Part shown: positions 1 to 26,235 of the stretch, one piece after another
Numbering within the stretch: position 1 is the stretch's first letter
Layout: each line of letters begins with the position of its first letter
From: Burkholderiales bacterium
Lineage (GTDB): Bacteria; Pseudomonadota; Gammaproteobacteria; Burkholderiales; JAEUOS01
Assembly: GCA_016790695.1 (NCBI GenBank)
Contig: JAEUOS010000145.1
Span: forward strand, 53,712-117,711
Length of the DNA stretch: 64,000 bases
Reading direction: 5' to 3'
Made by a program: the position numbers and the translations under genes
The notes under the pieces: generated by a model
Database searches by the model: none
Seen by the model: the letters and a program-made list of their open reading frames with translations, nothing else
Told to the model about the DNA's origin: nothing

Positions 1-401
1 TGCACCAGTGGCAGCGACGCCGCCGCGCGGGCGGCGCGCAGGGCCAGCAGATTGCGGGTGCGCGCCTGGAATTCCGCCGGATCGATCGGCTTGGCCAGGA
101 AGTCGGTGGCGCCGTTCTGGATCGCGCTCGCGGAAACCGAATGGAGGTCGCGCGGGAGCATCAGGACCAGCGGCACGTCAGCCAGTGTCGGCACGGCGCG
201 CAGGTGGCGGATCACCTCGAGGCCGTCGCTGGCGCGCATCAGGAAATCGACGTACACCAGGTCGGGCGTGTTGGTTTCGCACCAATCCAGTGCGCAGGCC
301 GGGTGCGCGAAACTGTGGACTTCCTCGATGCCGATCGCCGCGGCGAGCCGGGTCATGTCGGCAAGTTCATCGGCGTCGTCATTGATGATCGCAATAGCCA
401 T
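1..401 (-). CDS. Receiver-domain (REC) protein, atypical; 3' end runs off the window
   Basis: Manual translation from ATG at 401: MAIAIINDDADEL...PDLVYVDFLM...GATDFLAKPIDPAEFQARTRNLL. It is absent from the ORF track because there is no stop codon inside the window. Confidence 0.8.
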   Translation of the reverse strand, partial: MAIAIINDDADELADMTRLAAAIGIEEVHSFAHPACALDWCETNTPDLVYVDFLMRASDGLEVIRHLRAVPTLADVPLVLMLPRDLHSVSASAIQNGATDFLAKPIDPAEFQARTRNLLALRAARAAASLPLV

Positions 402-446
402 GGGGGCGGGACTTTCAGCGGTAGAGGCAGAACTACAACAATCCTC

Positions 447-473
447 CTATCGGCAGCCGGGCCGGAACCTTTA
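447..473 (-). promoter_or_regulatory. sigma28 (FliA)-type promoter
   Basis: The minus strand reads TAAA-N15-GCCGATAG (consensus TAAA-N15-GCCGATAA), 45 nt upstream of the REC start codon. Confidence 0.7.
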
Positions 474-623
474 GGGTGCGCCAGCGCCGATCTGCGCCGG
501 ATTTGCCCGGCTTCTCCGGCCGCGGATTCCGGGTTCATCAGCCTATGCTCCGGGTGTCATCGTGGGCATGGACCAGGAAGGGCGCGCGTCGCCGCCGGCT
601 GTGTCCGGGGAGGAGCAACACGC

Positions 624-2363
624 ATGTCCGCCGCAGCCCTGTCCGCCGCCAATCCAACCGAAATCGCGCGGGAAACCTTCCGCCAGCTCGCCACGCAGCG
701 CATCGCGCCGACGCCGGAGAACTATGCGCGCATCTACGCCCAGGTGTCGGGCGAACCGAGCGTGCATCCGGCGGCGGCTCTGGTCGAGCGCGCGCTGGCG
801 GCCGTGATCAAGGCGGCTGGCGCGCCGCAGGCGCCGGCCCAGGCGGCCCTGGCCGCGTTCCAGCGCCAGAAGTGGGAGGAGGTCGACGGCTGGCTGCAGA
901 AGGCTCTGCTCGCCCAATCCGGAGAGCCGCAGCCGTGGCACGACCTGGTGCGCGACCTGCTGCGCCAGTGGGAACTGCGCCACGACGGCCTGCCGCAGGG
1001 GCGCAAGCGCGAATCCCTCGACCATGTGCTCGACAATTCCCGCGCCGACCCGCGCAAGCTGTTCGTGCGCCTGAGCGCGCTCGTGAGGTCGTGGAGCGAG
1101 GCTCCGATCGCGCGCGCCGACGCCAATCCGCTGCCGAGCATCGCCCGCGGCGCGGGCGAGGCCGAGCGCGCCGATGCGCTGCGCGAACTGCTGGCTCAGA
1201 CGCTGGAATTCGCGGTCACCGATCGCCTCGGCTACACGCCGGAACTCGCGGCCGACGCCGCCCGGCTCGCACTCCTGACGCGGCAGGCGGCCGATCCGCG
1301 CGATCTGAACAAGCTCGGCCAGGCCCTCAAGGCATTCTGGCTCAAGCTCGAACTGCGCGGCGAGAGCGTCGACGGGCTCATGCGCGGGCTGGTCACCCTG
1401 ATCAAGCTCCTCACCACCAATGTCGGCGCCCTGTCGGGCGATCCCTGGCTCACCAGCCAGATGGCGCGCGCCGAGGCCCTGCTCAAGGAGCCGCTCGACG
1501 CGCGTGCGCTGCGCGAGGCCGAGCGCGGCTTCCGCGAGGTCGCGTTTCGCCAGGCCAGCCTGAAGAACGACCTCGATGAGGCCAAGACGGCGCTCAAGAC
1601 GATGGTCACGCTGTTCATCGACAGGCTCGACGAACTCACCGAATCGACCGGCGACTACCACGACAAGTTCAGCCAGTATGCGGGCCAGATCGAGGCGGCT
1701 GACAGCATCGCGGCGCTGTCCGGGCTGATCCAGTCGCTGCTCGCCGACACGCGCGGCGCCCAGGTCGCGATGCGGCGCTCGCGCGACGAGCTGCGCCAGG
1801 CGCGGGAAACGGCCCGGACCCAGGAGGAGCGGGTGCGCCAGCTCGAGACGGAACTCGCCGAGGTCGGCTCGCTGGTCAAGGAGGACCAGCTCACCAGCGT
1901 GCTCAACCGGCGCGGGCTCGAGGAGGCGTTCGAGGTGGAGGCGTCCCGCGTGCGCCGCGCCGGCACGCCGCTGGTGGTCGCGCTGCTGGACGTCGACAAC
2001 TTCAAGCGCCTGAACGACCAGCTCGGACACCTCGCGGGCGACAGCGCGCTCAAGCACCTTGCGGGGATCCTGCGCGATGCGATCCGGCCGTCCGACGTGG
2101 TCGGGCGATACGGCGGGGAGGAGTTCGTTCTCTATCTGCCCGACACCGGGCTGGAAGAAGCGGCGGAGGTGATGCGGCGCGTGCAGCGCACGCTGACGCG
2201 GCGCTTCTTCCTGCACCAGAACGAGAAGGTCCTGATCACGTTCTCGGCCGGCGTGGCCCTGCTCGGCGACGGCGAGACCCGCGACGCGGTGATCGCGCGC
2301 GCCGATGCCGCGATGTACAAGGCCAAGCAGACCGGCAAGAACCGGGTTTGCGTGGCCGATTAA
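624..2363 (+). CDS. Soluble diguanylate cyclase (GGDEF)
   Basis: AGGAG RBS at 611, N-terminal PTPENY motif, long coiled coils, DQLT...NRR, DVDNFK, RPSD I-site and GGEEF active site. Confidence 0.92.
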   Translation: MSAAALSAANPTEIARETFRQLATQRIAPTPENYARIYAQVSGEPSVHPAAALVERALAAVIKAAGAPQAPAQAALAAFQRQKWEEVDGWLQKALLAQSGEPQPWHDLVRDLLRQWELRHDGLPQGRKRESLDHVLDNSRADPRKLFVRLSALVRSWSEAPIARADANPLPSIARGAGEAERADALRELLAQTLEFAVTDRLGYTPELAADAARLALLTRQAADPRDLNKLGQALKAFWLKLELRGESVDGLMRGLVTLIKLLTTNVGALSGDPWLTSQMARAEALLKEPLDARALREAERGFREVAFRQASLKNDLDEAKTALKTMVTLFIDRLDELTESTGDYHDKFSQYAGQIEAADSIAALSGLIQSLLADTRGAQVAMRRSRDELRQARETARTQEERVRQLETELAEVGSLVKEDQLTSVLNRRGLEEAFEVEASRVRRAGTPLVVALLDVDNFKRLNDQLGHLAGDSALKHLAGILRDAIRPSDVVGRYGGEEFVLYLPDTGLEEAAEVMRRVQRTLTRRFFLHQNEKVLITFSAGVALLGDGETRDAVIARADAAMYKAKQTGKNRVCVAD

Positions 2364-2378
2364 CGCGGAGCGAACCGG

Positions 2379-5366
2379 ATGCCGGCGGAACGCGTCCCGG
2401 AGGGCACGCGCCGCGCCCCGTGGCGGGCGTGGCTCCTGCCGCTCCTCGCCCTCGGCATGGGCTGCGTGTTCACCGCGTACCTCTGGAACGAGCTGCGCGT
2501 GCGCAATCACGAGCGCGCCGCCGAGCGCTTCAAGACCGACGTGCGCGCGCTGGCCGAGCAGATCGAGGCGCGCGCCCACCTCGCCGCCGCGCTCCTGGCC
2601 GCGGGGGCCGGGCTGCACGAGGCGTCGGACGAGGTCACCGACGGGGAGTGGCGTTCGTTCGTCGCCTCGCTTCGGCTCACCGAGACCCACCCTGGCGTCA
2701 CCGGCTATGGTCATGTGGCGCCGCAGGGCACCGGCGGCCTGGCGGTGCGTATCGAACCCGGCGACGCGGCCGTGCGGACGTCCCTCGCCGGCGCGCTGCG
2801 GTCCGATCCCGGGCTGCGGGAGGCGATGCTGCGCGCGACGCGCGTGGACGCACCCCATCTGAGCGCGCCGATCGCGCCGGCGACGGCCGGTGGTGCCGAT
2901 GCGCTCTTCTTCATGCCACTCTATCAGCGGCAGTTGCCGCATCACACACCGCAGAAGCGCGAGCACGCCGCCTCGGGCCATGTGTTCCTGATGATCGATG
3001 CCGGGCAACTGGTCGGTGCGGTGCTGGCAGGGCGGGAACCGGGTTTCAGCTACACACTCGACGACGCAGGCGGCATACGGGAACCGTCGCGCGTACTGTT
3101 GCAGCACGGCCAGGATGGGCATCCGGGATCGCGCGCCGGCCTTGCCGTGCACGAACAGACGGTCGCGATCCCGATGTACGGGCGGGTCTGGCGCCTCCAC
3201 GCGCGCGCCGCGCCGGATTACGGGCTGGCGAGCCCGGTATCGCAGGAGGTGCTGCCCGTCGGCGCCGGGCTGGCGACGAGCCTGCTGCTCGCCCTGGTGG
3301 TCTATCTGTCGCAGCGCACGCGCTGGCGTGCCGAAGCGCTCGCCGATCGCATGACCCGCGACCGGGACGCGAGCCGGCGCCGGTTCGAACGGATCGTCGC
3401 CGGTACCACCGACGGCGCCTGGGAGCTCCAGGTCGAGAGCGGTGAATGCTATCTGTCGCCGCGGTTTCAGGAGCTTCTGGGCGTGACGATCGATGCTGCT
3501 TCGGTCGACGCGAAGTGGTTTCGTGCGCGCCTCCACCCCGACGAGCGCGCAGCCGTCACCGCCGCCTTTCGCGCCATGCTTGGCGGCGCCGCGGGCATGG
3601 ACTGCCGGGTGCGCATGCGTCTGGGCAGCGGCGGCTTTCGCTGGTTCCGGATCCGCGGTCGGCTGTTCCACGAGGATGGCCTGCGGTTCGCCGCGGGGTC
3701 GGTCGCCGATGTCCACGACGAGCACGAGGCCGGACTGCGCGAGCGACGCCTGCTGAAGGTCATCGAAACCATCCCCGACATGTACATCACCTTCGATGCC
3801 GCCGGGCGCCCGACCTACATGAACGCCGCCGCCCGGCGCGTCCTGGGCAGTGCGGCGGCGGGGGCACTCGCGGGCCGGGCGGCCGCCGGAGGCGGCGACT
3901 GGCGGCACGGCGCGCCGCCGGCAGCGCCGGGCGAGGCCTGGTCGGGGGAGACCGCACTCCTCACCGCCAGCGGCGAGGTCCTGCCGGTCTCGCAGGTGAT
4001 CCTCAGCCATCGCGACGCCGGCGGCGGGGTCGAGTTCTATTCGACGGTCGTGCATGACATCAGCGAACGCAAGGCGGCGATGGAGGCCCTCGCCAGGGCG
4101 CAGGCGCGCCTGCAGCGCGCGCTCGACGGCTCCAGTGACGGCATCTGGGAGCGCGATGTCGCCAGCGACAGCTTCTTCACCTCCGACCGGCTGGCCGAGA
4201 TTCTCGGGTATCGGCCGGCGGACATGCCGCGCACGCGCGCCGCCTGGCGTGCCCTCAATCATCCGGACGACATCGCGGTGAGCGACGCCGCAGTCGCACA
4301 ACTGCTGGCGTCGAACGAGACGGTGCAATGGGAGACCCGGATGCGCACCGGTTCCGGGCTCTATCGCTGGATGCGCAGGCGCGGCCGCGCCGTGCGGGAC
4401 GCGACCGGGCGTGCGGTGACCACGGCCGGGACCCTGACCGACATCCACGACGCGCGCTTGGCCCAGGACGAGTTGCGCGTGCACCGCGACAACCTCGCGC
4501 GCCTGGTCGACGAGCGCACCGCGGGCCTGTTGCAGGCGCGCCGCGACGCCGACCTCCAGCGCGACCGCGCCGAGGCCGCGCGCCGCCTTGCCGAGCGCGC
4601 CAACCATGCGAAGAGCGAGTTCCTCGCGAACATGTCGCATGAACTGCGCACGCCGATGCACGCGATCATCAGCTTCGCGGGCTTCGGTGTCGAGCGTGTC
4701 GACCGCGTCGAGCGGGACCGGCTCGCGCATTACTTCCGGAACATCCAGAAGAGCGGCGCGCGCCTGCTCGACCTGCTCAACGACCTGCTCGATCTGTCCA
4801 AGCTCGAGGCAGGCAAGATGACGATGTCGCTTGCGCCGGTCGATCTGCCGGAGCTGCTGGCCGAGAGCATCGGCGAGGCGGAGGCGTTCGCGCAGTCGCG
4901 CCGCGTGCGCATCCGGCTTGCGCCGGGCGGCGCGGCGGGGCGGCCGCGGTGGGATGCGAAACGCCTGCTGCAGGTGCTCGGGAACCTGCTCTCCAACGCG
5001 ATCAAGTTCAGCCCGCCGGAGGGCGAGGTGGTCGTCGCCGTGCGGCCGCTCGCGTTCGCGGACACGGGAACGACTGCGGCTGCGGGGATCGAGATCCGCG
5101 TGCGCGACCAGGGAATCGGCATCCCGGAGAACGAGCTCGAGGCCGTGTTCGACAAGTTCGCCCAGTCGTCGAAGACGAACAACGGCGCGGGCGGCACCGG
5201 GCTCGGCCTGGCGATCTGCCGCGAGATCGTCCAGGCGCACGGCGGCACGATCCGTGCCGAGAACAATTCCGCGGGCGGCGCGTGCCTGGTGGTCCACCTT
5301 CCCGTGGTTCCGGCGGCGGCCGTCCGGGACGCCGACGCCGATTCGCCCGTGGCGGCCGACGCATGA
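2379..5366 (+). CDS. Membrane sensor histidine kinase (CHASE-like, 3 PAS, HisKA, HATPase)
   Basis: Two TM segments, PAS/PAC motifs (LHPDE, NHPDD), H-box SHELRTPMH, N-box NLLSNAIKF, DQGIG and GTGLGL. Confidence 0.9.
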   Translation: MPAERVPEGTRRAPWRAWLLPLLALGMGCVFTAYLWNELRVRNHERAAERFKTDVRALAEQIEARAHLAAALLAAGAGLHEASDEVTDGEWRSFVASLRLTETHPGVTGYGHVAPQGTGGLAVRIEPGDAAVRTSLAGALRSDPGLREAMLRATRVDAPHLSAPIAPATAGGADALFFMPLYQRQLPHHTPQKREHAASGHVFLMIDAGQLVGAVLAGREPGFSYTLDDAGGIREPSRVLLQHGQDGHPGSRAGLAVHEQTVAIPMYGRVWRLHARAAPDYGLASPVSQEVLPVGAGLATSLLLALVVYLSQRTRWRAEALADRMTRDRDASRRRFERIVAGTTDGAWELQVESGECYLSPRFQELLGVTIDAASVDAKWFRARLHPDERAAVTAAFRAMLGGAAGMDCRVRMRLGSGGFRWFRIRGRLFHEDGLRFAAGSVADVHDEHEAGLRERRLLKVIETIPDMYITFDAAGRPTYMNAAARRVLGSAAAGALAGRAAAGGGDWRHGAPPAAPGEAWSGETALLTASGEVLPVSQVILSHRDAGGGVEFYSTVVHDISERKAAMEALARAQARLQRALDGSSDGIWERDVASDSFFTSDRLAEILGYRPADMPRTRAAWRALNHPDDIAVSDAAVAQLLASNETVQWETRMRTGSGLYRWMRRRGRAVRDATGRAVTTAGTLTDIHDARLAQDELRVHRDNLARLVDERTAGLLQARRDADLQRDRAEAARRLAERANHAKSEFLANMSHELRTPMHAIISFAGFGVERVDRVERDRLAHYFRNIQKSGARLLDLLNDLLDLSKLEAGKMTMSLAPVDLPELLAESIGEAEAFAQSRRVRIRLAPGGAAGRPRWDAKRLLQVLGNLLSNAIKFSPPEGEVVVAVRPLAFADTGTTAAAGIEIRVRDQGIGIPENELEAVFDKFAQSSKTNNGAGGTGLGLAICREIVQAHGGTIRAENNSAGGACLVVHLPVVPAAAVRDADADSPVAADA

Positions 5367-8300
5367 TCGCGATCGATTCCGGTACACCTCGGGCTCCGGC
5401 GCGGCCGGCGGCCTCGCTCAAGAGCCGGATGTCGGCCTGGGCGGCCACCCTGGTCGCGCTCGCGCTCGTCATCGCCGGGGGACTGTTCGAGGCCCAGCAT
5501 GTTGCGGCCCTGCGCGCGGCCCAGGAGATGCGCCAGGAGCAGCTTGCCGCGACGCTGGCGGCCGAGCTTGCGGGCCGGTTTCGATTCCAGAGGGGGCAAC
5601 TCGAACGTTTCGCCGGCAGTCTGAGCGCCGGCGACCTCGATGCGTCGGATCAGTTGCGCGCGCGATTGGCATCGCTGGCGCGGTACAACGGCGAGATCGA
5701 GGAGTTCTGGGTGGTCGACGCCGGGGGGATTGTCACGGCCGATCATCCGCGGCGTCCCGGTCGCGCCGGCACCAGCGTGGCCGATCGCGAGTACTACCGG
5801 CGCTTTCGCGCGAACGGCGGGTTCACCGTCTCCGAGCCCAGCGTCGGCCGCTTCAGCGGGGAGCCGCGCGTGATCCTGCTCGTGCCGCTGCTCGACCCGC
5901 GATCGCGCACCGTCGGCGCGCTGGCCGGCGTGGTGAAGCTGGATTCGACACGGCTGATCGGCGGCCTGTCGCGCCCGGCTGCCGACGGTGCCGGCTACAC
6001 CGGCGTGCTGTCGCGCGACGGGCTGCTGCTGTCGCATTCACGGTCGGCGAGTCCGCTCGCCGATGCCGGCGCCACCGAAGGCGCGGCCCTGTTGCTTGCG
6101 CACCGGCAGGCCGTGCGCACCCGGGCGCTGGCCATGCAGGAGGGCTGGAACGCGGCCGGCATCCGCGTGATCTACACCGTGCGCCCGGTGCCGGACGTCG
6201 ACTGGACCATCTTCGCCGCACAGCCACTGGACGAATTGCAGGCGCAACTGCGGCGCCAGGTGCTCGCGCTGGCCCTGGTCCTGGTGCTGCTGACCCTGGG
6301 CGGCGGTCTCGCGGCCTGGTGGATGATGTCGCGCCTGCTCGCGCCGCTCGCCGCGCTCGAGCGGGCGGTGCGCGAGCGCGCCGCCGACCCGGGCGCCTCG
6401 TCGCCGCTGCCGGTCGGCCGCCGCGACGAGATCGGACGGTTGGCGGAGACCTTCAACGGGCTCCTGCGCGCGCGTGACGAGGCGCGGGCGGCCAGCGACG
6501 CGGCGCACGCGCAGATCGAGTCCGCGGGGCGGATGCTCGCCATCCTGTACGAGCGGTCGCCGCTCGGGATGGCGCTGGTGGAGGCGGACGGCCGGATCGC
6601 CCGCTGCAATCCCGCCTATCTGCGCATCGTCGGCTACGAGGCCGAGGAGCTCGCGGCGCTGACCGAGTCCGGCCTGACGGCGCGTGGCCACGAAGCGGTC
6701 GAGGCGGAAGCGCGGCGCAGCCTGGATGCACATGGCGCCGCCGCGGCATACGAGAAGGAATACATCGCCCGCAACGGCGTCTGCGTCCCGGTGCGGGTCT
6801 CGGCGTTTGCCGCCGGTGATGGCAGCGGCGGGCGCACCTGGCTATTGTGCGAGGACATCACGGCGCGGCGCCAGGCCCTGCTGGCGCTGCGCGAGAGCGA
6901 GCGCGAGGCGCGCATGCTGGCCGCCGCCGCCAGCCACAACGCCCACATGGTGGTGATCGCCGACACCGCGTGCCGGATCGAGTGGGTCAACGCCGGTTTC
7001 ACGCGCGTCACCGGCTACAGCCTCGCGGACGTCAAGGGACGCGTCGCCGGGCGCGTGCTGCAGGGGCCCGAGACGGATCCCGCGACGGTGGCGATCATGC
7101 GCGAGGCGATCGCCGCGCGCCGTCGCTTCACCGCGTCGCTCGTGAACTACGCGAAGGACGGGCGGCGCTACTGGGTGAGCATCGACTGCACGCCGGTATT
7201 CGATCACCAGGGCGGGCTGGAGCGCTTCGTCGCCGTCGAGCGCGACATCACCGCCGAGCGCCAGGCCGCACAGGCGCTGATGGAGAGCGAGTCCAAGCAC
7301 CGGGGCATCTTCGAGACGGCGCGCGAGGCGATCTGGCAGATCGACGCCGCAGGCAGGATCATGCTGCTCAACCCGGCCTGGGAGCGCCTCACCGGGCACG
7401 CGGTGATCGACAGCGTCGGGCGCCCGTTTGTCGAGTTCCTGGTCGCCGCGCAGCGCGCGAGTGCGAGCGCCGCGCTGGACGCGCTCAACAACGGCAGCAT
7501 TGAGCAGATCGACGAGCAGTGCAGCATCGTCACGCGCGATGGCAGCGCGCGCTGGTTCGAGATCCGCGGCCGCGGCTTCACCGGGGCCGACGGCGCCAGG
7601 CAATGCGTCGGCACGCTGCACGACGTGCATGAACGACGGCAGGCCGAGGCGTCGCGCCGGCGCGCCGAGGAGGCGCTGCGCCAGTCGCAGGAGCGCTACG
7701 CGCGCGCGATCGAGGCGGCCAGCGACGTGATCTGGGAGCGGGATTTCGGCACCGGAAAGTCGTTCGTCTCCGATCGCATCATCGAGACCTTGCGCATGCC
7801 GGCTGACGCGGCCGCGCGCGCGCGTTTCGACCTGTTCGATCGTGTCCATCCCGACGATCGGGCGATGCACGACCGCTGCATCGAGGCGATGCGGCAGGGC
7901 GACGACACGATCACGTGGGAGGCCCGCTTCGCCACGGGCGACGGCAGCTACCGCTGGCTGCGGCTGCGCGGTCGCGCCGTGCGCGACGAGGCCGGCGCCG
8001 TGCGCATCGCCTCGGGTACCGCATCCGACGTGCATGCGGGGCGCGTGGCCGCCGAGGAGCTGCGTGCGATGCAGGTGCGCTACCAGCGTGCGATGGACGG
8101 ATCGAACGACGGGGTGTGGGAGCGCGATGTCGCCTCCGACCAGTTCTTCCTCTCGGACCGCTTCGACGAACTCCTCGGCTTCGCGCCGGGCGCGATGCCG
8201 CGCCAGCGCGACGCGTGGATGAAGCTCGTCCACCCGGACGACCGATGCCTGCACGACGCCGGTGTGGCGCGCATGCTCGCGTCCCCGGATGCGATCACCT

Positions 8301-9355: not shown

Positions 9356-9371
9356 CCCCTGGGAGAACGCC

Positions 9372-10286: not shown

Positions 10287-10307
10287 ACGCCGGGGTACGG
10301 CCGGGGT

Positions 10308-12877: not shown

Positions 12878-13152
12878 GCCGGCCTCCGCGACCGGCGCCG
12901 GGGAATCTTGAATCGAATTAGCGGCGAATCCGTGGTCATTCTCGTTCGATTTCGTGGGGCGCATCCGCGAATAATCGTCGGTGCGGATGCAGCCCATAGT
13001 CTAGCGCCACCGCCGCAGCGTCGCAGACCGGGCCCCGGGCAATTGTGCCGGCAGGCGACCGGTGCGTGCGGTCGCGGGCGACGCGAGGGCGTGCGAGGGA
13101 GCGCGAGGATACACCGAAGCGCGGAGGATTTCATGAGAAGGGCACACGGTGC

Positions 13153-14280: not shown

Positions 14281-14322
14281 GCCGGCGCGACGCACGACGG
14301 CAAATTCACAGGAGAAAACACC

Positions 14323-14688
14323 ATGAGCAAGACCGTGCTGACCGTGGACGATTCGGCTTCCATTCGCCAAATGGTCGGCTTCACCCTGAAGGGCGCGGGA
14401 TACAGCGTCGTCGAGGCTGTCGACGGCAACGATGGCCTGGCCAAGGCGAAGGCGGGCGGGGTCAGCCTCGTGCTCACGGACCAGAACATGCCCGGCATGG
14501 ACGGCATTTCCATGATCAAGGCCCTGCGCGCGATGCCCGCCTACAAGAGCGTGCCAATCCTCATGCTGACCACGGAGTCCGGCGACGCCATGAAGGCACA
14601 GGGCAAGGCGGCTGGCGCGACCGGCTGGATCGTCAAGCCGTTCGACCCGGCCAAGCTTCTCGAGGTCGTGCGCAAGGTGCTCGGCTGA
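14323..14688 (+). CDS. cheY: Chemotaxis response regulator CheY (F7-type)
   Basis: Single REC domain with VDDSASIR, TDQNMP, LTTES and ATGWIVKPF. AGGAG RBS. Confidence 0.93.
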   Translation: MSKTVLTVDDSASIRQMVGFTLKGAGYSVVEAVDGNDGLAKAKAGGVSLVLTDQNMPGMDGISMIKALRAMPAYKSVPILMLTTESGDAMKAQGKAAGATGWIVKPFDPAKLLEVVRKVLG

Positions 14689-14722
14689 TGCCGGGGCGCG
14701 CGACTCTGCACACGGTGATCGC

Positions 14723-16594
14723 ATGAGCACCCCAACGCAATCGGCAAGCGGGGCACGGAGCGTCGATCTCTCCCAGTTCCACACCGTCTTCTTCGAGGAG
14801 GCCGACGAGCATCTCGCCTCGATGGAATCGCTGCTGCTGGAGATCGACGTCGAGGCCGCGAGCCAGGAAGACCTGAACGCGATCTTCCGCGCCGCCCACT
14901 CGATCAAGGGCGGCGCAGGCATGTTCGGCTTCGCCGACGTGTCGGAACTCACGCACGAGGCCGAAACCCTGCTCGACCTCGCGCGCAACGGCAGCGTGCG
15001 CCCGACGGTGGAGATCGTCGACGCGCTGCTCGAGACCCGGGACCTGCTGAAGAATCAGCTCGCCGTGCACCGCGGCGAGCAGGACGTCGCCCCCGACGCC
15101 TCCGCCCTGGTGCTGCGCCTGCGCGCGCTGTGCGAGGGCGGCACGGGCGCCGCGTCGCCGAACCCGCCCGTCGAAGCAGGGTATGGCTTCTTCGAGCCGG
15201 CACCGGCGCCGGCCGACGAGGCCGACTACGGATTCTTCGATGACGCCGCCCCGGCACCTGGGGCCGCACCCTCGGCGGCCCCGGTCACCGCGGAGGCGGG
15301 GGACGGCTACGGTTTCTTCTCGCCGCTCCCGGAGCCGGACGGGGCGACGACCGCATCGCCTGCGCCACCCGTCGTGGCGGCGCCACCGAGCCCGGCGCGG
15401 CCGGCGGCGGCGAGGGCCGACAGACAGGCGGAGACGGCCTCGATCCGGGTGCCGGTGTCCAAGGTCGACCAGTTGATCAACCTGGTCGGAGAGCTCGTGA
15501 TCACGCAGGCGATGCTGGCGCAGAACGCGACGCAGGTGGAGGCGGCACGCCACCAGCAACTGCTGGCCCGGATGGCCGACCTCGAACGCAACACGCGCGA
15601 CCTGCAGGAATCGGTGATGTCGATCCGGATGATGCCGATCGCGATGGTGTTCAACCGCTTCCCGCGCATGCTGCGCGACCTCGCCACGAAGCTCGGCAAG
15701 AAGGTCGAGCTGAAGATGGTGGGCGAGGGGACCGAGCTGGACAAGGGACTGATCGAGAAGATCATCGATCCGATGACGCACCTCGTGCGCAACTCGCTCG
15801 ACCACGGCATCGAACTGCCCGACGCGCGCGCCGCTGCGGGCAAGAGCGAGACGGGAACCATCACCCTGTCGGCGTCCCACCGGGGCGGCAACATCGTCAT
15901 CGAGGTGGCCGACGACGGCGCCGGGCTGCGCCGCGACAGGATCCTCGCGAAGGCCAGGGAGCGCGGCATCGCGGTGCCGCCGTCACCGTCGGACGGCGAG
16001 GTCTGGAACCTCATCTTCGAACCCGGATTCTCCACGGCCGAGGTGGTGACCGACGTGTCGGGCCGCGGCGTCGGCATGGACGTGGTGCGCCGGAACATCA
16101 GCACGCTCGGCGGCAGCGTCGACATCGAGTCCGCGGCCGGGGCGGGCACGCGGATGACGGTGCGCCTGCCGCTGACGCTGGCCATCATGGACGGCATGTC
16201 GATCGCCATCGGCGGCGAGGTGTACATCCTGCCGCTGGCCTCGGTCGTCGAATCGCTGCAGGCCGATGCCCGCGCGCTGCGACCGGTGTCGGGCCAGGGC
16301 CGGGTGCTCGACGTGCGCGGCGAGTATCTGCCGGTGCTCAAGCTCGCCGAGGTGTTCCCGCCGGCGACGCCGGCGCCGCCGCGCGGCACCGAAATGATCG
16401 TCATCGTCGAGGCCGACGGGGTCAAGGCGGCCCTGGTCGTCGATGAACTGGTCGGACAGCACCAGGTGGTGGTCAAGAGCCTGGAAACGAACTATCGCCG
16501 CCAGCCCGGCATCTCCGGGGCGACCATCATGGGCGACGGGCACGTTGCGCTGATTCTCGACGTCGCGGCGCTGATCAAGAAAACCCGACACTAA
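14723..16594 (+). CDS. cheA: Chemotaxis histidine kinase CheA (no recognisable P2 domain)
   Basis: HPt [11 protein letters not shown], dimerisation SIRV...[31 protein letters not shown] and a C-terminal CheW-like domain. Confidence 0.95.
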
Positions 16595-16610
16595 ACCAAC
16601 GGAGCCAGCT

Positions 16611-17132
16611 ATGGAAACCAAGGAGCTCGCCGGCCGCATCGCGCAGGGCGGCGCCAATGAATTCCTCACCTTTCGCCTCGGCGAGGAGGAATACGGCATC
16701 GACATTCTCAAGGTGCAGGAGATTCGCGGTTACGACACCGTGACGCGGATCGCCAATACGCCGGCGTTCCTCAAGGGCGTGATCAACCTGCGCGGCTCCA
16801 TCGTTCCGATCGTGGACCTGCGGATCAAGTTCGCGCTCGGCGAGCCGACCTACGACCAGTTCACGGTCGTGATCATCCTCAACGTCGGCGGCCGGGTTGT
16901 CGGCATCGTGGTCGACAGCGTGTCCGACGTCCTGACGCTGGCCGAGGAGCAGATCCGCCCGGCGCCGGACTTCTCGGCGGTCCTGGCGACCCAGTATGTC
17001 AAGGGGCTCGGCGCGATCGACGAGCGGATGCTCATCCTCGTCGACATCGAGGCCCTGATCGGCAGCGCGGACATGGGCCTGTTCGAGGCCAGCAACAGCA
17101 GTGCGGCGGCAGGCGACCTGCTCGCGGCGTGA
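16611..17132 (+). CDS. cheW: Chemotaxis coupling protein CheW
   Basis: [25 protein letters not shown] and [16 protein letters not shown]. Confidence 0.95.
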
Positions 17133-17217
17133 ACATCCGGGGCCGGTAGGGCGGAGGCCGGACCGGCCGGGATGCTGAGCCAAGGCGATTCGCAACTTTC
17201 AACAAGGAGAAGTTGAC

Positions 17218-19122
17218 ATGGGTTGGATGCAGAAGATTCTCGGTGCCGAAGCGTCGGCGTCTGGCGGTGGCGAAATCGGCAAGCTGCGAGCGCAGCTCGA
17301 GGCGGTCTCGGCCGAACTCAAGGTGCGCACGGACATCATGAACATGACGAGCATCGTGTCCGAAGCGGACAAGAAGGGCGACATCGTCACCATCAACGAG
17401 AAGTTCATCGAGGTGTCGAAGTACTCGCGCGACGAGCTGATCGGCCACCCCCACAACACCACGCGCCATCCCGACATGCCGAAGGAGGTGTTCAAGAAGA
17501 TGTGGGGGACGATCGGCCGCGGGGAGATGTTCCGCGGCGTCATCAAGAACCGGGCGAAGGACGGCACCCCCTATTACGTCGACGCGGTGATCGCGCCGAT
17601 TCTCGGCGAGAACGGCAAGCCCGAGCGCTATCTCGGCGTGCGCTACGACATCACCGAGGCGGAACTCGAGCGCCAGCGCGCGCGCGGCGTGCTCGCGGCG
17701 ATCGACGCCTCGTATGCGTTCATCGAATTCGACCTGAACGGCAATGTGGTCTCGGCGAACGAGAATTTCCTGCGTGCCATGGGCTACGGGCGCGACGAGA
17801 TCGTCGGGCGCCACCACCGGATGTTCGTCGAGGCTACGTATGCCGCGTCGCCGGAATACCGCCAGTTCTGGGCGGACCTCAACGCCGGCCTCGCGCAGAC
17901 GAACGTGTTCAAGCGCGTCTCGAAGGCCGGCAAGGAGGTGTGGATCCAGGCAACCTATGCCCCGGTCAAGGACGAGATGGGCCGCGTGAAGAGCGTGATC
18001 AAGATCGCCACCGACGTCACCGCGCAGATCCTGGCGACGCAGGCGCTGCAGGCGGCGGTGCGCGAGGTCCAGGACGTGGTGTCGGCGGCGCAGGGCAATG
18101 ACCTGACGCAGCGGGTGCCGGTGGCCGGAAAGACCGGCGAGATCGCGCAGTTGTGCGAGGGCGTCAACTCCCTGATCGACACGATGACCCAGGTGGTCGG
18201 CACGATCCGGGAGTCGACCGGGGCGATCGGGACGGCGGCGAAGGAGATCGCGATGGGCAACACCGACCTGTCGCAACGCACCGAGGAGCAGGCCTCCAGC
18301 CTGCAGGAGACGGCGTCGAGCATGGAGGAACTGACCTCGACCGTGCGCCAGAACGCCGAGAACGCGAAGCAGGCGAATCAGCTGGCGGAAGCGGCGAGCC
18401 AGATCGCGGTCAAGGGCGGCGGCGTGGTCCACCAGGTGGTGGGAACCATGGATGCGATCACGGCGGCGTCGAAGAAGATCGTCGACATCATCAGCGTCAT
18501 CGACGGCATCGCCTTCCAGACCAACATCCTGGCGCTGAACGCCGCGGTCGAGGCCGCGCGTGCCGGCGAACAGGGGCGCGGATTCGCCGTCGTCGCGACC
18601 GAGGTGCGCAATCTTGCCCAGCGCAGCGCGAACGCCGCCAAGGAGATCAAGAGCCTGATCGGCGACTCGGTGGAGAAGGTCGAGGTCGGCTCGAAGCTGG
18701 TGGCGGATGCCGGCGCGACGATGGACGAGATCGTCGGATCGGTCAAGCGGGTGACGGATATCATGGCGGAGATCACCGCCGCGAGCCAGGAGCAGAGCGC
18801 GGGCATCGAGCAGGTGAACCAGGCGGTGGCGCAGATGGACAAGGTGACGCAGCAGAACGCGGCGCTGGTCGAGGAGGCGGCCGCGGCGGCCGAGTCGATG
18901 GAGGAGCAGGCGCAGGGCCTGTCGCAGATGGTCAGCGTGTTCCGCCTCGGCGACGAGCAGCGCGCCGTCGCGGCAGCCGCCGCACCCGGGCGCGCGCGCG
19001 CCAAGGCCCTGCCGAATCCTGGCGCGAAGCCGGTCGCGAAGGCGTCGGCGAAGGCGCCGGCGCGCGGCGGCGCAGCGGCGCCGGCGGCCGCGGGCACGGC
19101 CGACGAGTGGGAGGAGTTCTGA
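17218..19122 (+). CDS. Cytoplasmic PAS-PAS-HAMP methyl-accepting chemoreceptor (Tsr-like signalling domain)
   Basis: No TM segment, PAS1 RHPDMP, PAS2 [22 protein letters not shown]...[28 protein letters not shown], and the C-terminal pentapeptide EWEEF. Confidence 0.92.
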
Positions 19123-19217
19123 TTCCGCCGGTCCCACGATGACCCTCTGTCGCCGCGCGTGCACGGGACAACCGGACCGGTGCGCGCGGCCCCGTCATTT
19201 GCCATCGGAATCAGCCC

Positions 19218-20129
19218 ATGAATCTGCAACAAGGCGGCGCGGTGCATGCGCACCCGCCGACCATCGCGGCGCCGGAATACGCCATGTCCGGCCAGGACTT
19301 CGACCGCGTGTGCGAGATGATCCGGCGCCACGCCGGCATCGCGCTCAACCCGAGCAAGAAGAGCATGGTCTACAGCCGCCTCGCGCGGCGGCTGCGCGCC
19401 ACCGGCATGCGCAGCTTCACGGAGTATCTGGACGCGCTTGAAGGCGGCGGCCCGCGCGCGGACGAGGAGTGGCAGGGCTTCGTCAACGCGCTGACCACCA
19501 ACCTGACCTCGTTCTTCCGCGAGGCCCACCACTTTCCGATTCTCGCCGAGCATCTGCAGCGCCTGCGCGCCAGGGAACGCATCAACATCTGGTGCTGCGC
19601 CGCCTCCACCGGCGAGGAACCGTACAGCATCGCGATGACGGCGCAGGAGGCGTTCGCCGGCGCCGCCCGGTCGGTGCGCATCCTCGCCACGGACATCGAC
19701 ACGGCCGTGCTCGCGACCGCGCGATCGGCCAGCTACCGCGACGAGCAGGTCGCGCGCGTCGACGGCGACCGGGTGCGCCGGTTCTTCCTGCGCGGCAGCG
19801 GCGCGAACGAGGGCTGGGTGCGGGTCCGGCCCGAGGTCTGCGGCATGGTCACGTTCCGGCAGCTCAACCTGCTCGACACGGCCTGGCCGCTGCGTCCAGG
19901 ATTCGACGCGATCTTCTGCCGCAACGTGATGATCTACTTCGACAAGCCGACGCAGTACGGATTGCTGCGCCGCTTCGCGCCTCTGCTCAACCCCGGCGGC
20001 CTGCTGTTCGTCGGGCACTCGGAGAACTTCGCGCAGGCACGCGATGTGTTCCAGCTGCTCGGCAAGACCGTCTACGAGGTCAACCCCGGGGCCGCCTGCC
20101 GGCTCACCTCCCGCCCGGGCAATGCGTGA
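19218..20129 (+). CDS. cheR: Chemotaxis methyltransferase CheR
   Basis: [42 protein letters not shown] and GHSE. The start could instead be 19284. Confidence 0.95.
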
Positions 20130-20159
20130 CGCGGATTCGCGAACCTGACGAGGTACCAA

Positions 20160-20792
20160 TTGGCAATCAAGCGAGGGGGCGCGGCACCGGTGGATGCCGG
20201 GCCGAAGCTGTATTTCGATCCACAGGTCGGCCTGGATGCGGCGAAGATCCGTCCCGGGGAGTACTACGCGTCGGCGCGCGACATGGTGATCGTCACGGTC
20301 CTGGGGTCGTGCGTGTCCGCGTGCCTCTGGGACGAGACGCGGAAGGTCGGCGGCATGAACCACTTCATGCTGCCCGATGCGGGCGCCAACGGCGTGGACA
20401 TGTTCGGCGAGTCGGGCCGCTACGGCGCGTTCGCAATGGAGCTGCTGATCAACGAGCTGATCAAGATGGGCGCGCAGAAGTCGCGCCTCAAGGCCAAGGT
20501 GTTCGGGGCCGGCAACGTCATGCAGAGTCTTTCATCGTCCAACGTCGGGGAGCGCAACGCCGAGTTCGTCGAGCGCTTCCTCGGCAACGAGGGGATACCG
20601 ATACTCGCGCGCGACCTGCTCGATGTCTGGCCGCGCAAGGTCTACCTGTTCCCCACCACCGGTCGCGTGCTGGTGCGCAAGCTGAAGACGCTGAACAACG
20701 ACACGATCATCACGCGCGAGCGCGCCTACACGAGCCAGCTGCGCACCAGCAAGAGCGATCAGACGGCCGGCGACATCGAGTTGTTCGTCTGA
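20160..20792 (+). CDS. cheD: Chemoreceptor glutamine deamidase CheD
   Basis: [22 protein letters not shown] and [11 protein letters not shown] start after GAGG. Confidence 0.93.
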
Positions 20793-20818
20793 GGTGCGCG
20801 AGGAACCACGGAGGAAGC

Positions 20819-21889
20819 ATGGACAAGATCAAGGTACTGGTGGTCGACGACTCCGCACTGATACGCAAGCTGATGTCGGAGATCGTCAACGCGCAGTCGG
20901 ACATGGTGGCCGTCGGCGCCGCACCCGACCCGCTGGTCGCGCGCGACATGATCAAGGCGCTGGCGCCGGATGTCCTGACGCTGGACATCGAGATGCCGCG
21001 CATGGATGGCCTGGAGTTCCTCGAGAAGCTGATGCGGCTGCGGCCGATGCCGGTGGTGATGGTGTCGACCCTGACCGAGCGCGGCACCGAAGCGACCATG
21101 CGGGCGCTCGAACTGGGCGCGGTCGACTTCGTCGCCAAGCCGAAGCTCGACATCCAGAAGGGCATTGCCGACTATGCGCAGGACATCACGGACAAGATCC
21201 GGGCGGCGGCGCGCTCGCGGCTGCCGATCGCGCGCCATCTGCCGGCGGCGGCGGCACAGCGGCCGTCGCGGGCGGCGCTCGGCAATCGCACCGCCTCGAC
21301 CGAGAAGCTGATCCTGATCGGTGCCTCGACCGGCGGCACCGAGGCGATCCGCACGGTCCTCGAGGGGCTGCCGGCGGACATGCCGGGCATCCTCATCACC
21401 CAGCACATGCCGGCCGGATTCACCCGAAGCTTCGCCGAACGGCTCAATAAATCCTGCGCCCTTGCCGTAAAGGAGGCGGAGGACGGCGAGCGGGTGCTGC
21501 CGGGGCATGCGTACATCGCCCCCGGAAGCCACCACCTGGTTGTCCGCAAGAGCGGGGCCAACTACATCACCGGCCTGTCCGACGGGCCGCCGGTCAACCG
21601 GCACCGGCCATCGGTGGAGGTGCTGTTCAGGTCGGGCGCGGAGGTCGGCGGTGCGAACGTGATCGGAGTGATGCTGACGGGCATGGGCAAGGACGGCGCG
21701 CAGGCGATGCGGGAGATGCGCGATGCCGGGGCCTGGAATGTCGTCCAGGACGAGGCGAGCTGCGTGGTCTTCGGCATGCCGCGCGAGGCCATCGCGGCGG
21801 GCGCGGCGAACGAAGTGGTGCCGCTGCAGGAGGTCGCCGGCCGTCTGCTGGCGCGCCTGCGCGGGATCGGCACGATGCACCGCGTGTAG
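20819..21889 (+). CDS. cheB: Chemotaxis methylesterase CheB
   Basis: REC domain plus IGASTGG, QHMP, HRPSV and [17 protein letters not shown]. Confidence 0.95.
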
Positions 21890-21928
21890 CGGTGGCACGG
21901 ATTCATGGGTCAATCGGGAGAGCAAGGG

Positions 21929-22234
21929 ATGAACATCAACGTCAACCGCAAGGATGGTCGGGCCAGCCTCACGCTGAAGGGGCGCTTCGACTTCACCTGC
22001 CACCGGGGCTTCAAGCAGGCCTACGAGGAGGCCTTCTCGGGCAACGAGGTGACCGAGGTGGTGGTGGACCTGCGCGAGGTCGACTATCTCGACAGCTCCG
22101 CGCTCGGCATGCTGCTGCTTCTGCGCGACAAGGGCAAGTCGATGGGCAAGCAGGTGAGCCTCGCGAACTGCGCCGGCACGGTCCGCGACGTTCTGCGCGT
22201 GGCGAATTTCGACAAGCTGTTCACGCTGCACTGA
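21929..22234 (+). CDS. STAS anti-sigma-factor antagonist (HsbA/SpoIIAA-like)
   Basis: GRFDF and VDLREVDYLDSSALGMLL, which contains the phosphorylatable Ser motif DSS. Confidence 0.9.
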   Translation: MNINVNRKDGRASLTLKGRFDFTCHRGFKQAYEEAFSGNEVTEVVVDLREVDYLDSSALGMLLLLRDKGKSMGKQVSLANCAGTVRDVLRVANFDKLFTLH

Positions 22235-22249
22235 GCGGACACCGCGCAC

Positions 22250-24025
22250 ATGGTTCGGGCGATGGCTGACGCGCCGGGCGCGAGCGCGCGCTATGTCGCG
22301 CTGGTTGTCGAGGACAACCCGATCGAGGCGCAGGTGCTGTGCCGGATCCTGCGCTCCTGCGGGTTCGCGCCGACGCATGCCGCCGACGGCATGGCCGCGA
22401 TCGAGATGTACCCGCGGGTGCAGCCCGACGTGGTGCTGCTCGACTACGCGATGCCGGTCATGAACGGCCGCGAGACGGCGCTGCGACTGCGTGCGCTCGA
22501 CCCGACACGGTGGGTGCCGATCTGGTTCGTCACCGGCAACGAGGACACGGCCGAGGTCGCGGAGGCGATCGCGGCGGGCGCCGATGCCTACCTTCCCAAG
22601 CCGGTCAACGCGGCGATCCTCCGGGCGCACCTGTCGAACGCCGCGCGCTACACCGACATCCAGCGGCAGATGCGCGACCAGAACGGCGCGCTGAAGGCCT
22701 ACTTCGAGGCCAGCGAGGCCGAGAACCGCGCGGCGCGGTCGATCATGCAGAAGCTGCTGCCGATCCAGACCGAGCACGGCGCCGTCCTGCGCACCTGGAA
22801 CTCGCCGGCCTTCAAGTTCAGCGGCGACATCGTCATGGCCGAACGCTCCCCCGACGGTTCGCTGAAGGTGCTGCTCGCCGACGGCGTCGGTCACGGGCTG
22901 ACCGCTGCGCTCAACGTGCTGCCGATCGGGCGCGCGTTCCAGTCGATGGCGCAGAAGGGCTTCGGACTGCCGGCGCTGGTCACCGAACTCAACCACACGA
23001 TCCGGCGCGACCTGCCGTCGCACCGGTTCGTGGCGGTCACGCTGGTCAGCATCGACTCGATCGAGGGGCGCATCGAGGTGTGGAACGGCGGCAATCCGCC
23101 GGTCCTGATGATCGATTCCGACGGCGCGGCGGTGGCGCGCTGGGACAGCACGCATCTGCCGCTCGGGGTGGTGGCCAGCGAGGATCTCGACAGTCGCCCG
23201 GACTACGTCCCGTTCCGCGACGACGTCCAGCTGTTCCTGTGCTCGGACGGCCTGATGGAGGCGGAGGCGGCCGACGGCTCGGCGTTTGCGGAGGCCGGCG
23301 TGCTGCGCGCGTTTCGCGACTGGCCCGCCAAGGATCGCTTCGAGTCGGTGAAGATCGCCGTCGCCGACCACCTGGCCGGCGAGAGCGCGAAGGACGACAT
23401 CACGATTGCCATCGTCGATTGCGGCGCCGAGCTGGAGCGTCGCACGCGCCGCAGCGCGGCGCGGACCGTGCCGCAGCAGGCCCTGGTGGTGCGGCCGCAT
23501 GCCGCGTCGGGCGACTGGGAACTGCGGCTGCGCATCGGCGCGGAGCGCCTGACCCGGGTCGACATCATTCCGATCCTGCAGGAGTTCATGTCGCGCTTGG
23601 ACCCCGCAGGGGCGATCGACGAATCGACATTCCGCGTGCTGGCCGAGCTCTACGACAATGCGCTCGAGCACGGGCTGCTGGAACTCGATTCGCGCCTCAA
23701 GGAGGAAGCCAACGGGCATGTTGCGTACGCGCGCGAGCGCGAGCGGCGCCTGGCCCAGCTCGCCGACGGCGTGATTCACATCGACGTGGCGCGCATCGAG
23801 ACCGACGCCGGACCGAAGATGCGCATCCGGGTGAAGGACTCCGGCAAGGGATTCGACGAGCGCGCCTGGCGGCTCGACGCGGGAGCGCTGTTCCGGCGCG
23901 CCGACCGCGGCATCAGCCTCGTCGAGAGCCTGTGCGAGTCGGTCGAGTATCGCAACGGCGGCTCCGAGATCGAGGTGACGCGGGCGCTGCCGGCCGCCAT
24001 GCCGGCACCGGAAGCGGTGCACTAG
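22250..24025 (+). CDS. REC-PP2C(SpoIIE)-Ser/Thr kinase partner-switch regulator (HsbR-like)
   Basis: Receiver LLDYAMP, PP2C motifs SGDI, ADGVGHG, SDGLME and DDIT, then kinase motifs ELYDNALEHG, DSGKGFD and RGISLV. Confidence 0.88.
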   Translation: MVRAMADAPGASARYVALVVEDNPIEAQVLCRILRSCGFAPTHAADGMAAIEMYPRVQPDVVLLDYAMPVMNGRETALRLRALDPTRWVPIWFVTGNEDTAEVAEAIAAGADAYLPKPVNAAILRAHLSNAARYTDIQRQMRDQNGALKAYFEASEAENRAARSIMQKLLPIQTEHGAVLRTWNSPAFKFSGDIVMAERSPDGSLKVLLADGVGHGLTAALNVLPIGRAFQSMAQKGFGLPALVTELNHTIRRDLPSHRFVAVTLVSIDSIEGRIEVWNGGNPPVLMIDSDGAAVARWDSTHLPLGVVASEDLDSRPDYVPFRDDVQLFLCSDGLMEAEAADGSAFAEAGVLRAFRDWPAKDRFESVKIAVADHLAGESAKDDITIAIVDCGAELERRTRRSAARTVPQQALVVRPHAASGDWELRLRIGAERLTRVDIIPILQEFMSRLDPAGAIDESTFRVLAELYDNALEHGLLELDSRLKEEANGHVAYARERERRLAQLADGVIHIDVARIETDAGPKMRIRVKDSGKGFDERAWRLDAGALFRRADRGISLVESLCESVEYRNGGSEIEVTRALPAAMPAPEAVH

Positions 24026-26203: not shown

Positions 26204-26235
26204 CGGCCGAAGCGGGTGCATTTTGCGCCCGCTTC

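Follow-up and report, generated by a model that had tools for sequence, protein, structure and literature searches.

The 64,000-nucleotide stretch of DNA analysed here, which we call the window, comes from a Burkholderiales bacterium of the GTDB lineage JAEUOS01 (GenBank assembly GCA_016790695.1, contig JAEUOS010000145.1, positions 53,712 to 117,711 of the forward strand; G000:C168:53712-117711 in our genome set). The genome is 5.49 Mb long and 91% complete. The first 24,025 nucleotides of the window hold a row of signalling genes that includes a chemosensory (che) operon of the F7 type, a partner switch made of a STAS protein and an enzyme with receiver, phosphatase and kinase domains, and a cyclase for cyclic di-GMP (c-di-GMP). 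Coding frames in this 70% G+C window were picked by third-position GC content (GC3) and then scanned with Pfam, the source of the domain assignments below. There are exactly 17 genes in 1..24025, numbered here g0 to g16, and seven receiver (REC) domains; an earlier note, made from the letters of the sequence, had claimed 17 consecutive signalling genes and seven receivers, and both counts proved right. With DNA to the left of the window, the stretch is organised as four adjacent predicted transcription units, A to D, between the flg operon and rluB-nusA.

Unit D consists of ten F7-type genes in one row on the plus strand (13045..24025), with gaps of at most 96 bp throughout. The first encodes an McpA-like receptor that has only a signalling domain (g7, MCPsignal, 13153..14280). 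Its longest frame runs from 13045, orthologues align from residue 54 of that frame, and the start is probably the ATG at 13153. It is followed by CheY (g8, 14323..14688), CheA with Hpt, dimerisation, HATPase and CheW-like domains (g9, 14723..16594), CheW (g10, 16611..17132), a soluble PAS-PAS-HAMP-MCP receptor (g11, 17218..19122), CheR (g12, 19218..20129), CheD (g13, 20160..20792; 273.9 bits on the NCBIfam CheD model, over its cut-off) and CheB (g14, 20819..21889). The last two genes form the switch. The first of them, g15 (21929..22234), encodes a single-domain STAS anti-sigma-factor antagonist (Pfam STAS, NCBIfam ant_ant_sig); its orthologues start at the ATG at 21929, giving 101 residues. 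Directly downstream lies g16 (22250..24025), which encodes a REC-SpoIIE(PP2C)-HATPase_c_2 protein with the three domains of the HsbR/CrsR type: a receiver, a PP2C phosphatase and a GHKL kinase/anti-sigma domain.

Both members of the switch look active, judged by their conserved residues. In g16, the receiver Asp and Lys, the metal-binding Asp of the PP2C domain with its GHG and SDG motifs, and the N-box, G1 and G2 of the kinase domain are invariant in 13 of 13 orthologues. In g15, Asp55-Ser56 is invariant in all 18 aligned sequences, and Ser56 aligns with the DSS phospho-serine motif of SpoIIAA and TM1442. Its number is also that of the Ser56 reported for HsbA (PMC6482189).

Several signs point to the F7 class for unit D. 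Indirect support comes from the score of its CheA on the E. coli-type CheA model (715 bits, against 359 bits for the copy in the flagellar cluster), from the presence of CheD, and from the soluble receptor g11, which ends in EWEEF, similar to the C-terminal pentapeptide of Aer2/McpB. On receptor models of the E. coli type, the signalling domain of g11 reaches 381-394 bits. Among solved structures, the best relatives of its first PAS domain are the ‘Aerotaxis receptor’ structures 8dik and 31cj, together with 3ewk and NifL 2gj3, all of which we take to be flavin-binding PAS domains. Because these are the closest structures, the input of g11 may be redox rather than haem-bound oxygen.

By gene content, the core g7 to g16 is a known kind of system: an ancestral F7 cluster with an HsbA/CrsA-like STAS protein and an HsbR/CrsR-like enzyme. 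In the literature, a stage 1 F7 cluster is given as STAS, cheY, cheA, two cheW, aer2-like, cheR, cheD, cheB, mcpA-like, STAS and serine phosphatase genes, a stage 2 cluster has the last three of these shifted to the front, and the function of the ancient F7 system is termed still unknown (PMC7184735). The order found here is intermediate between the two stages. The island had been put forward as a candidate for an undescribed system, a view that does not survive comparison with the literature: the ten-gene set is published both as F7 stage 1/2 (PMC7184735) and as the che1-crsA-crsR locus of Shewanella (PMC9855816), and the pairing of flagellar genes with HsbA/HsbR, HptB and a cyclase is published for Pseudomonas (PMC5085249, 10.1101/2024.11.25.625174).

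Unit B, also on the plus strand, begins with g1 (624..2363), a soluble diguanylate cyclase of 579 residues in which an all-helical N-terminus of about 420 residues without a Pfam family precedes the GGDEF domain (8.4e-45). By eye it has a GGEEF motif and an RxxD site. Its match to cyclase models is confined to the GGDEF part, and a comparison of its N-terminal 400 residues with the Protein Atlas yielded nothing beyond clusters without a name and a weak lead resembling DGCcoil (TM 0.36). The cyclase is followed by two membrane kinases, g2 (CHASE-PAS-PAS-HisKA-HATPase, 2379..5366) and g3 (dCache-HAMP-4xPAS-HisKA-HATPase, 5363..9355), each with two hydrophobic segments around its sensor domain (CHASE in g2). 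No hydrophobic segment was found in g1, g6, g7, g11 or the hybrid kinase of unit A. The two membrane kinases had been called paralogues, and they are 57% identical over 448 residues, a region made up of the last PAS domain and the kinase core. The fourth gene, g4 (9372..10286), encodes a receiver joined to an RsbW-like serine kinase/anti-sigma domain (Response_reg and HATPase_c_2). The spacing of g1 to g4 is operon-like (16 bp, a 4-bp overlap between g2 and g3, and 17 bp), and g4 is the last gene of this predicted operon.

Unit C is a two-component pair on the minus strand, comprising the NarL/LuxR-type response regulator g5 (10308..10940; Response_reg and GerE) and its partner g6 (10937..12997), a soluble REC-PAS-PAS-HisKA_3-HATPase kinase. 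Scans of 1..27000 for sigma-70 promoters and terminators gave the same counts as shuffled sequence and are uninformative on the ends of these operons.

Unit A runs leftward out of the window. Its first gene, g0, is on the minus strand (1..401, with the last 58 nt left of the window) and encodes a single-domain receiver of 152 residues (Response_reg 2.9e-15). The earlier note had called this receiver atypical and, by our own reading by eye, a Pro does replace the expected conserved Thr/Ser. Reading the contig beyond the left edge of the window showed g0 to be the first gene of a leftward three-gene operon. Its other members, identified from GC3 frames and Pfam, encode a soluble hybrid kinase of 1124 residues (PAS-PAS-HisKA-HATPase-REC-REC-Hpt) and a REC-PAS-GGDEF-EAL protein of 724 residues.

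Positions 447..473 of the minus strand hold a promoter of the sigma-28 (FliA) type, TAAAGGTT-N11-GCCGATAG; the start codon of g0 follows after 45 nt. To score it we used the sigma-28 consensus, which we take to be TAAAGTTT-N11-GCCGATAA; the site matches at 14 of 16 positions and has the 11-nt spacer. The strict pattern occurs twice in the genome. Its second site fits the consensus perfectly and lies some 160 nt ahead of a flagellin gene, which makes the assumed consensus itself credible in this genome. Allowing three mismatches gives 15 sites genome-wide, of which only the g0 site is in the window; a weaker site of this type precedes the unit-A hybrid kinase. The promoter is conserved in eight of eight relatives: the best match in the g0-g1 intergenic region of the eight genomes, from three genera, is always in the same place and always has the 11-nt spacer, with 2, 2, 2, 3, 3, 3, 4 and 4 mismatches. 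We regard the promoter, which the earlier note had pointed out, as real, credible and conserved. It is predicted to drive unit A, not the cyclase or the che operon.

The island had also been described as self-contained, a description that fails at its left end, where it extends 5.7 kb further and abuts flgL. The end of flgL is 5.7 kb, flgM 17 kb and fliA 22 kb left of the window. Leftward past flgL come flgK back to flgB, flgA, flgM, a probable flgN, a PAS kinase and a regulator. Further left are fliA, a 287-residue gene without a family match, flhF, flhA and flhB, then two MCPs, a second cheA, cheZ, a CheV-type gene, motB, motA, flhC and flhD. Beyond these come two flagellin genes together with flaG, fliD and fliS. 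The flagellin genes are in tandem and encode 276 residues each, with the perfect sigma-28 consensus before the downstream one (G000:C168:12792-12819, L005:11803-13798). The earlier statement that flagellar, mot and cheZ genes are lacking is true of 1..24025 and not of the contig, which carries flgL, flgM, fliA, cheZ, motAB and flhDC. A separate flagellar che system (CheV, CheZ, CheA and two MCPs behind flhDC-motAB) is therefore present on the same contig. To the right of g16 lie rluB, nusA, infB, rbfA and truB. An origin of the island in a mobile element was rejected, as its G+C is uniform and relatives have it in the same place, with flgL on one side and rluB-nusA on the other.

We compared the locus across 61 genomes, 22 of them from the host family, including the host’s own genome and the complete genome G006. 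Tallies over these 61 genomes, and over the 39 from other families, include the unpublished G047, which is negative for g4, g16, STAS and FliA and positive for rpoS. At E <=1e-20, g16 was matched in 28 of the 61 genomes; the match in G021 was to the receiver only, so 27 are counted as carriers. All ten other genomes of the genus have a g16 orthologue, with 63-76% identity. For synteny, the surrounding DNA was fetched and searched by tblastn with 22 proteins. In two genomes of the host genus the whole order recurs: G006 has flgL, then units A to C, followed by the che row, STAS-g16 and rluB, and G010 has the same except for flgL, its contig beginning inside the hybrid-kinase gene. All 7 of the contigs that were long enough to judge carry units A to C and STAS-g16 (G006, G005, G008, G010, G001, G016 and G015, of which G016 belongs to a second genus of the family and G015 to a third; the contigs of G003 and G004 were too short). 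The modules are therefore not confined to one genome, the association of all units is a family-level feature, and the neighbourhood link is real that joins a che operon of the F7 type to the partner switch of STAS and REC-PP2C-kinase, to c-di-GMP enzymes and to a sigma-28 promoter. In the cheW-cheR interval of G006 (L013-L014) and G010 (L022-L023), the receptors match the signalling domain of g11, not its N-terminal sensor; G010 has two receptor genes there, and in G006 an additional NarL-type gene and a receiver stand between g5 and g6. Going by these matches, sensor domains turn over within the genus.

The che row shows nested deletions in five relatives, all of which keep STAS and g16. What remains is CheA residues 1-318 beside a receptor piece in G005, CheA 1-199 and a CheB fragment in G008, CheB 187-356 only in G001, CheB fragments in G003, and CheR and CheB only in G016. 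Because the che genes have eroded and STAS and g16 have been kept, the array is dispensable for the switch in these five genomes. This weakens the earlier claim that the array sets STAS phosphorylation. In other families of the order, STAS-g16 occurs without F7 genes in G058, G026, G059 and G013.

A wider scan with a 13-sequence g16 alignment found 78 loci in beta- and gammaproteobacteria, reaching Pseudoalteromonas, Hahella and other gammaproteobacteria, with none from Pseudomonas or Shewanella. A STAS gene is adjacent in 58 of the 78 loci, an F7-like cheB stands just upstream in 19, and 21 have a GGDEF or EAL gene no further than 5 kb away. All seven che genes were present in the fetched flank of 7 of the 58 loci with at least 9 kb upstream. 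Units B and C together appeared only at L064, from the same genus.

These loci also differ in their neighbours. In eight of them (L065, L067, L068, L070, L073, L081, L089 and L095, from Chitinolyticbacter, Jeongeupia, Chitinibacter, Andreprevotia, Chitinimonas and similar taxa), STAS and the g16 homologue are immediately preceded by a short HisKA-HATPase kinase core (about 8.7-9.6 kb; in L073 about 2.0-2.6 kb), and the same eight have a divergent che-type row of another kind, CheW-CheY-CheW-CheY-CheA. What feeds the switch seems to be exchangeable from one lineage to another. The Thiobacillus-type loci L121, L123, L130, L132 and L136 have a convergent REC and GGDEF gene just downstream of the g16 homologue, and in six Pseudoalteromonas loci a gene of the GGDEF-EAL type stands upstream of STAS at a distance of some 2 kb. 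Genes for cyclases or phosphodiesterases are recurrent neighbours of the switch in unrelated lineages.

The output published for switches of the CrsR type is sigma-S. The third domains of CrsR and HsbR are reported to bind RpoS (PMC6482189), and Che1 of Shewanella, whose ten-gene locus with CrsA and CrsR is described as one transcription unit, ‘could be involved’ in RpoS regulation (PMC9855816). None of the 22 genomes of the host family, the complete G006 among them, has an rpoS over the cut-off of the RpoS equivalog model, which detected only RpoD, RpoH and FliA in the host genome. In the whole set, 23 of 61 genomes passed the cut-off. Since no rpoS was found in the family, the published sigma-S output of CrsR is inapplicable here and the target must differ. 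Among the 27 carriers of a g16-like gene, rpoS was found in 6 and not in 21, five of which belong to other families and are 93-100% complete. As 21 of 27 genomes bearing the enzyme had no rpoS that we could find, sigma-S is not the general output of the module. Of the 27, 24 have FliA; the three in which it was not found are 71-84% complete.

Another sigma factor could be the direct target. The kinase domains of g16, g4 or both might sequester FliA, RpoH or an ECF sigma factor, which STAS would release, much as the third domains of CrsR and HsbR bind RpoS (PMC6482189). HATPase_c_2 is the SpoIIAB/RsbW family of anti-sigma factors, and, apart from RpoH and FliA, the RpoS model detected no alternative sigma factor outside the ECF group. 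However, the island has no sigma gene, and orthologues of g16 without a kinase domain exist in G015, G055 and G053, which makes this direct action distinctly unlikely in our judgement.

The earlier note proposed a closed loop, in which the array and the histidine kinases set the phosphorylation of STAS, STAS controls the release of sigma-28, the cyclase or both, and sigma-28 acts back on the island. In the form weighed here, STAS without phosphate would capture FlgM and sigma-28 would thereby be freed. Several points speak for such a loop: binding of HsbA to FlgM is reported in P. aeruginosa (PMC6482189), the lack of rpoS in the family leaves FliA as the nearest SigB/SigF-like sigma factor, flgM and fliA are on the same contig, and the sigma-28 promoter is conserved. 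A flgM homologue also lies within the 10-kb flank of 6 of the 78 distant g16 loci, some 10 kb away on the downstream side (L081, L106, L110, L126, L129 and L133, in Gallionella, Ferrigenium, Andreprevotia and metagenome-assembled genomes), so the switch is near flagellar genes in other lineages too. Against this, the sole sigma-28 site in the window, even allowing three mismatches, serves only the leftward operon of receiver, hybrid kinase and GGDEF/EAL protein, the che genes are lost in five relatives, and the island is not self-contained. In P. putida, moreover, HsbA is described as binding HsbR and the cyclase CfcR, not FlgM, with no effect on FliA activity (10.1101/2024.11.25.625174). A complex prediction for STAS and FlgM (alignments of 18 and 11 rows) scored 0.00 with the fold of the partner uncertain, and counts neither way. 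We consider the closed loop unlikely. The earlier interpretation stands in part: the neighbourhood link and its recurrence are borne out, the self-contained, undescribed character of the island and feedback by sigma-28 are not, and control by the array is weakened.

The gene that may extend the switch beyond its published form is g4. Its receiver residues and the N-box, G1 and G2 of its kinase domain are invariant in 20 of 20 orthologues, and full-length orthologues occur in 25 of the 61 genomes. In a profile-profile comparison the g4 and g16 families matched with 99.96% probability (E 5.5e-39), receiver and kinase aligning end to end, and g4 looks like g16 minus the phosphatase. At 12 g4 loci from other families, a histidine kinase is immediately upstream in seven, five of these being of the CHASE type. 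Across 39 other families, represented by one genome each, g4 and STAS were both present in 9, g4 only in 1, STAS only in 2 and neither in 27; in all nine of the genomes with both, the two genes are unlinked, on separate contigs or megabases apart. Two variants point toward g4 as a second kinase for the STAS switch. In G015 the island g16 orthologue is a REC-PP2C protein without a kinase domain and g4 is present, and G055 has, in one row, genes for a CHASE kinase, a g4-like protein and a 398-residue REC-PP2C protein without a kinase domain. In three other families, a gene for a ParA/MinD-like ATPase lies upstream of the kinase/g4-like pair or of the g4-like gene (L053:4133-4900, L054:7965-8762, L058:4150-4917).

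It is also conceivable that the four units are merely juxtaposed: independent systems gathered beside the flagellar genes, with no cross-talk through STAS and with an unrelated target for g4. The pairs of CHASE kinase with g4 and of STAS with g16 are never adjacent outside the host family, and the ten-gene F7 module occurs without units A to C in G037, G048 and G036, from other families of the order, and in 7 of the 58 evaluable loci of the wider scan. The order of the units is, however, kept across three genera, g4 and STAS co-occur across families though unlinked, the kinase domain of g4 is a close relative of that of g16, and G015 and G055 pair g4 with a kinase-less REC-PP2C protein. We think it improbable that the units are unconnected.

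We favour a model, with a probability of roughly 0.55, in which the four units comprise two REC-controlled kinases and one phosphatase acting on one STAS serine, with an output other than sigma-S, as the organism has no rpoS. Unit A would be a sigma-28-driven leftward operon of g0, the Hpt-ending hybrid kinase and the REC-PAS-GGDEF-EAL protein; unit B an operon of the cyclase g1, the periplasm-sensing kinases g2 and g3 and the TciR-like g4; unit C the NarL-type two-component pair g5/g6; and unit D an ancestral-type F7 operon ending in the STAS protein g15 and the REC-PP2C-kinase g16. With its receiver unphosphorylated, g16 would phosphorylate STAS on Ser56, and with its receiver phosphorylated it would dephosphorylate the same residue. 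The F7 CheA would supply phosphate to this receiver where the array is intact, and there is probably another donor too, for example the Hpt domain of the unit-A kinase. Under the control of g2 and g3, g4 would be a second kinase for the same STAS protein. The likelier outputs are control of c-di-GMP synthesis by g1, antagonism of FlgM and hence an effect on sigma-28, or both, and sigma-28 would in turn express unit A.

A more general proposal is tentative, and we think it possible rather than probable: TciR-like receiver-kinases may be the missing second kinase of switches of the HsbA/CrsA type, with signals from g2/g3, through g4, and from an optional F7 array or Hpt relay, through g16, converging in this family on a STAS serine that, in a lineage lacking sigma-S, sets c-di-GMP synthesis, FlgM-sigma-28 activity or both.

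Several points weigh against the favoured model. Every phosphotransfer step and protein contact in it is drawn from the families involved. The switch has outlasted the che genes in the five relatives described above. No STAS gene lies beside g4 at any of the 12 loci from other families (0/12). The co-occurrence of g4 and STAS has a Fisher p of 2.4e-6, a value that overstates the association as related genomes are not independent; all carriers of g4 and of STAS are flagellated, so a shared lifestyle is a confounder, and G025, one of the 10 g4-bearing genomes of other families, has no STAS gene. The P. putida result given above speaks against the FlgM branch of the output. For the cyclase branch, g1 is not an HsbD orthologue: HsbD is described as having 389 residues, with six membrane segments at the N-terminus and GGDEF at the C-terminus (PMC5085249), and g1 has 579 residues and no such segment. 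Finally, in the only study of TciR, its authors state that Vogesella indigofera lacks an RsbV homologue (PMC12826045), which also favours the mere juxtaposition of the units.

The lineage offers a natural test of the output of such modules. The same module is kept where no rpoS was found, which argues against sigma-S as the general output of F7 systems. If the signals do converge through g4 and g16, sigma-S would not be the general output of the ancestral F7 system. The relatives that have lost che genes and kept STAS and the enzyme are natural variants in which the switch has survived the array. An HsbA-like STAS protein is, in addition, a concrete and testable candidate substrate for TciR-like regulators, whose target is left open in the published account (PMC12826045). 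The weight of these points comes from gene content and not from a demonstrated mechanism.

The genome holds other parts of similar kinds. It has three CheA genes; the third CheA-type dimerisation domain (G000:C103:115615-115776) lies in a 2100-residue frame, which probably encodes a large kinase like ChpA from a different chemosensory system. Contig C215 carries a second single-domain STAS gene (124 residues, beside thiC; L003:5266-5640) and a lone RsbW-like gene of 142 residues (L003:10014-10442); the 4.4 kb that separate the two contain FecR-like and OmpA-like genes. A further STAS_2 gene is on C43 (L011:3026-3466). These partner-switch parts could cross-talk with g4 and g16. Within the window, Rfam and tRNA scans found two tRNAs, both distant from the island, and no hit within it. 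Among sequencing runs, no RNA run containing this DNA was listed, and the DNA runs shared at most 0.45 of the sampled words. The intervals 33126-34076, 53412-55100 and 57845-58709 have no frame passing the GC3 filter, no Rfam family and no tRNA.

One known system close to unit D by description is the che1 locus of Shewanella oneidensis with CrsA and CrsR, a stage 2 F7 cluster (PMC7184735). The STAS protein and enzyme are encoded at the 3′ end of the row here, and behind mcpA there. The first PAS domain of the receptor is of the Aer/NifL type here, in contrast to the haem PAS described for Aer2, and the published target, RpoS, was not found in the host family (PMC9855816, PMC6482189). A stage 1 F7 cluster, of the type of Vibrio cholerae cluster III, likewise has STAS and serine phosphatase genes downstream of cheB and a separate flagellar che system with cheZ and CheV in the same genome; unlike it, our row has one cheW rather than two, no STAS gene at the 5′ end, and its mcpA-like gene at the 5′ end. 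The host is a betaproteobacterium, and the betaproteobacterial representatives in that account were of stages 3-4 (PMC7184735).

The HptB-HsbR-HsbA system of Pseudomonas is similar in having a REC-PP2C-kinase and a STAS protein with its phospho-serine at position 56. HptB is reported to relay to HsbR, and phosphorylated HsbA to bind the cyclase HsbD (PMC6482189, PMC5085249). It also shares the linkage to flagellar genes including flgM, the remnants of che genes, a nearby FliA-type promoter, an Hpt phosphorelay and a cyclase: hsbD, hptB, hsbR, hsbA, CheR-like and CheW-like genes, flgA, flgM and flgN form one neighbourhood (PMC5085249), and hsbAR-hptB is described as invariably linked to flagellar/chemotaxis clusters, with a weak FliA-dependent promoter (10.1101/2024.11.25.625174). 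Because this linkage is already published, the idea of a co-encoded lifestyle switch is not new. The two systems differ in that the Hpt domain here is the tail of a hybrid kinase, rather than the single-domain HptB, and in that a complete F7 operon and a second REC-kinase, g4, are attached here.

In architecture g4 resembles TciR of the TciK/TciR pair of Vogesella: it is a receiver with an RsbW-like domain, it is encoded behind a sensor kinase, and it keeps the kinase residues. TciR is linked genetically to the kinase TciK, its target is given as unknown, and its architecture is said to have had no earlier functional study (PMC12826045). Here, in contrast, two kinases precede g4, a cyclase heads the operon, and STAS and the PP2C enzyme are 12 kb away. 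SypE and SypA of Vibrio fischeri offer a precedent for a receiver-controlled RsbW-like kinase and a PP2C phosphatase acting on one STAS protein with an output other than a sigma factor, although there kinase, REC and PP2C are in one protein and the locus is for polysaccharide, not che or flagellar (PMC12826045, PMC10120452). Set beside these systems, what appears new here is a family in which no rpoS was found, nested che deletions with the switch kept, a TciR-like g4, and the co-occurrence of unlinked g4 and STAS genes.

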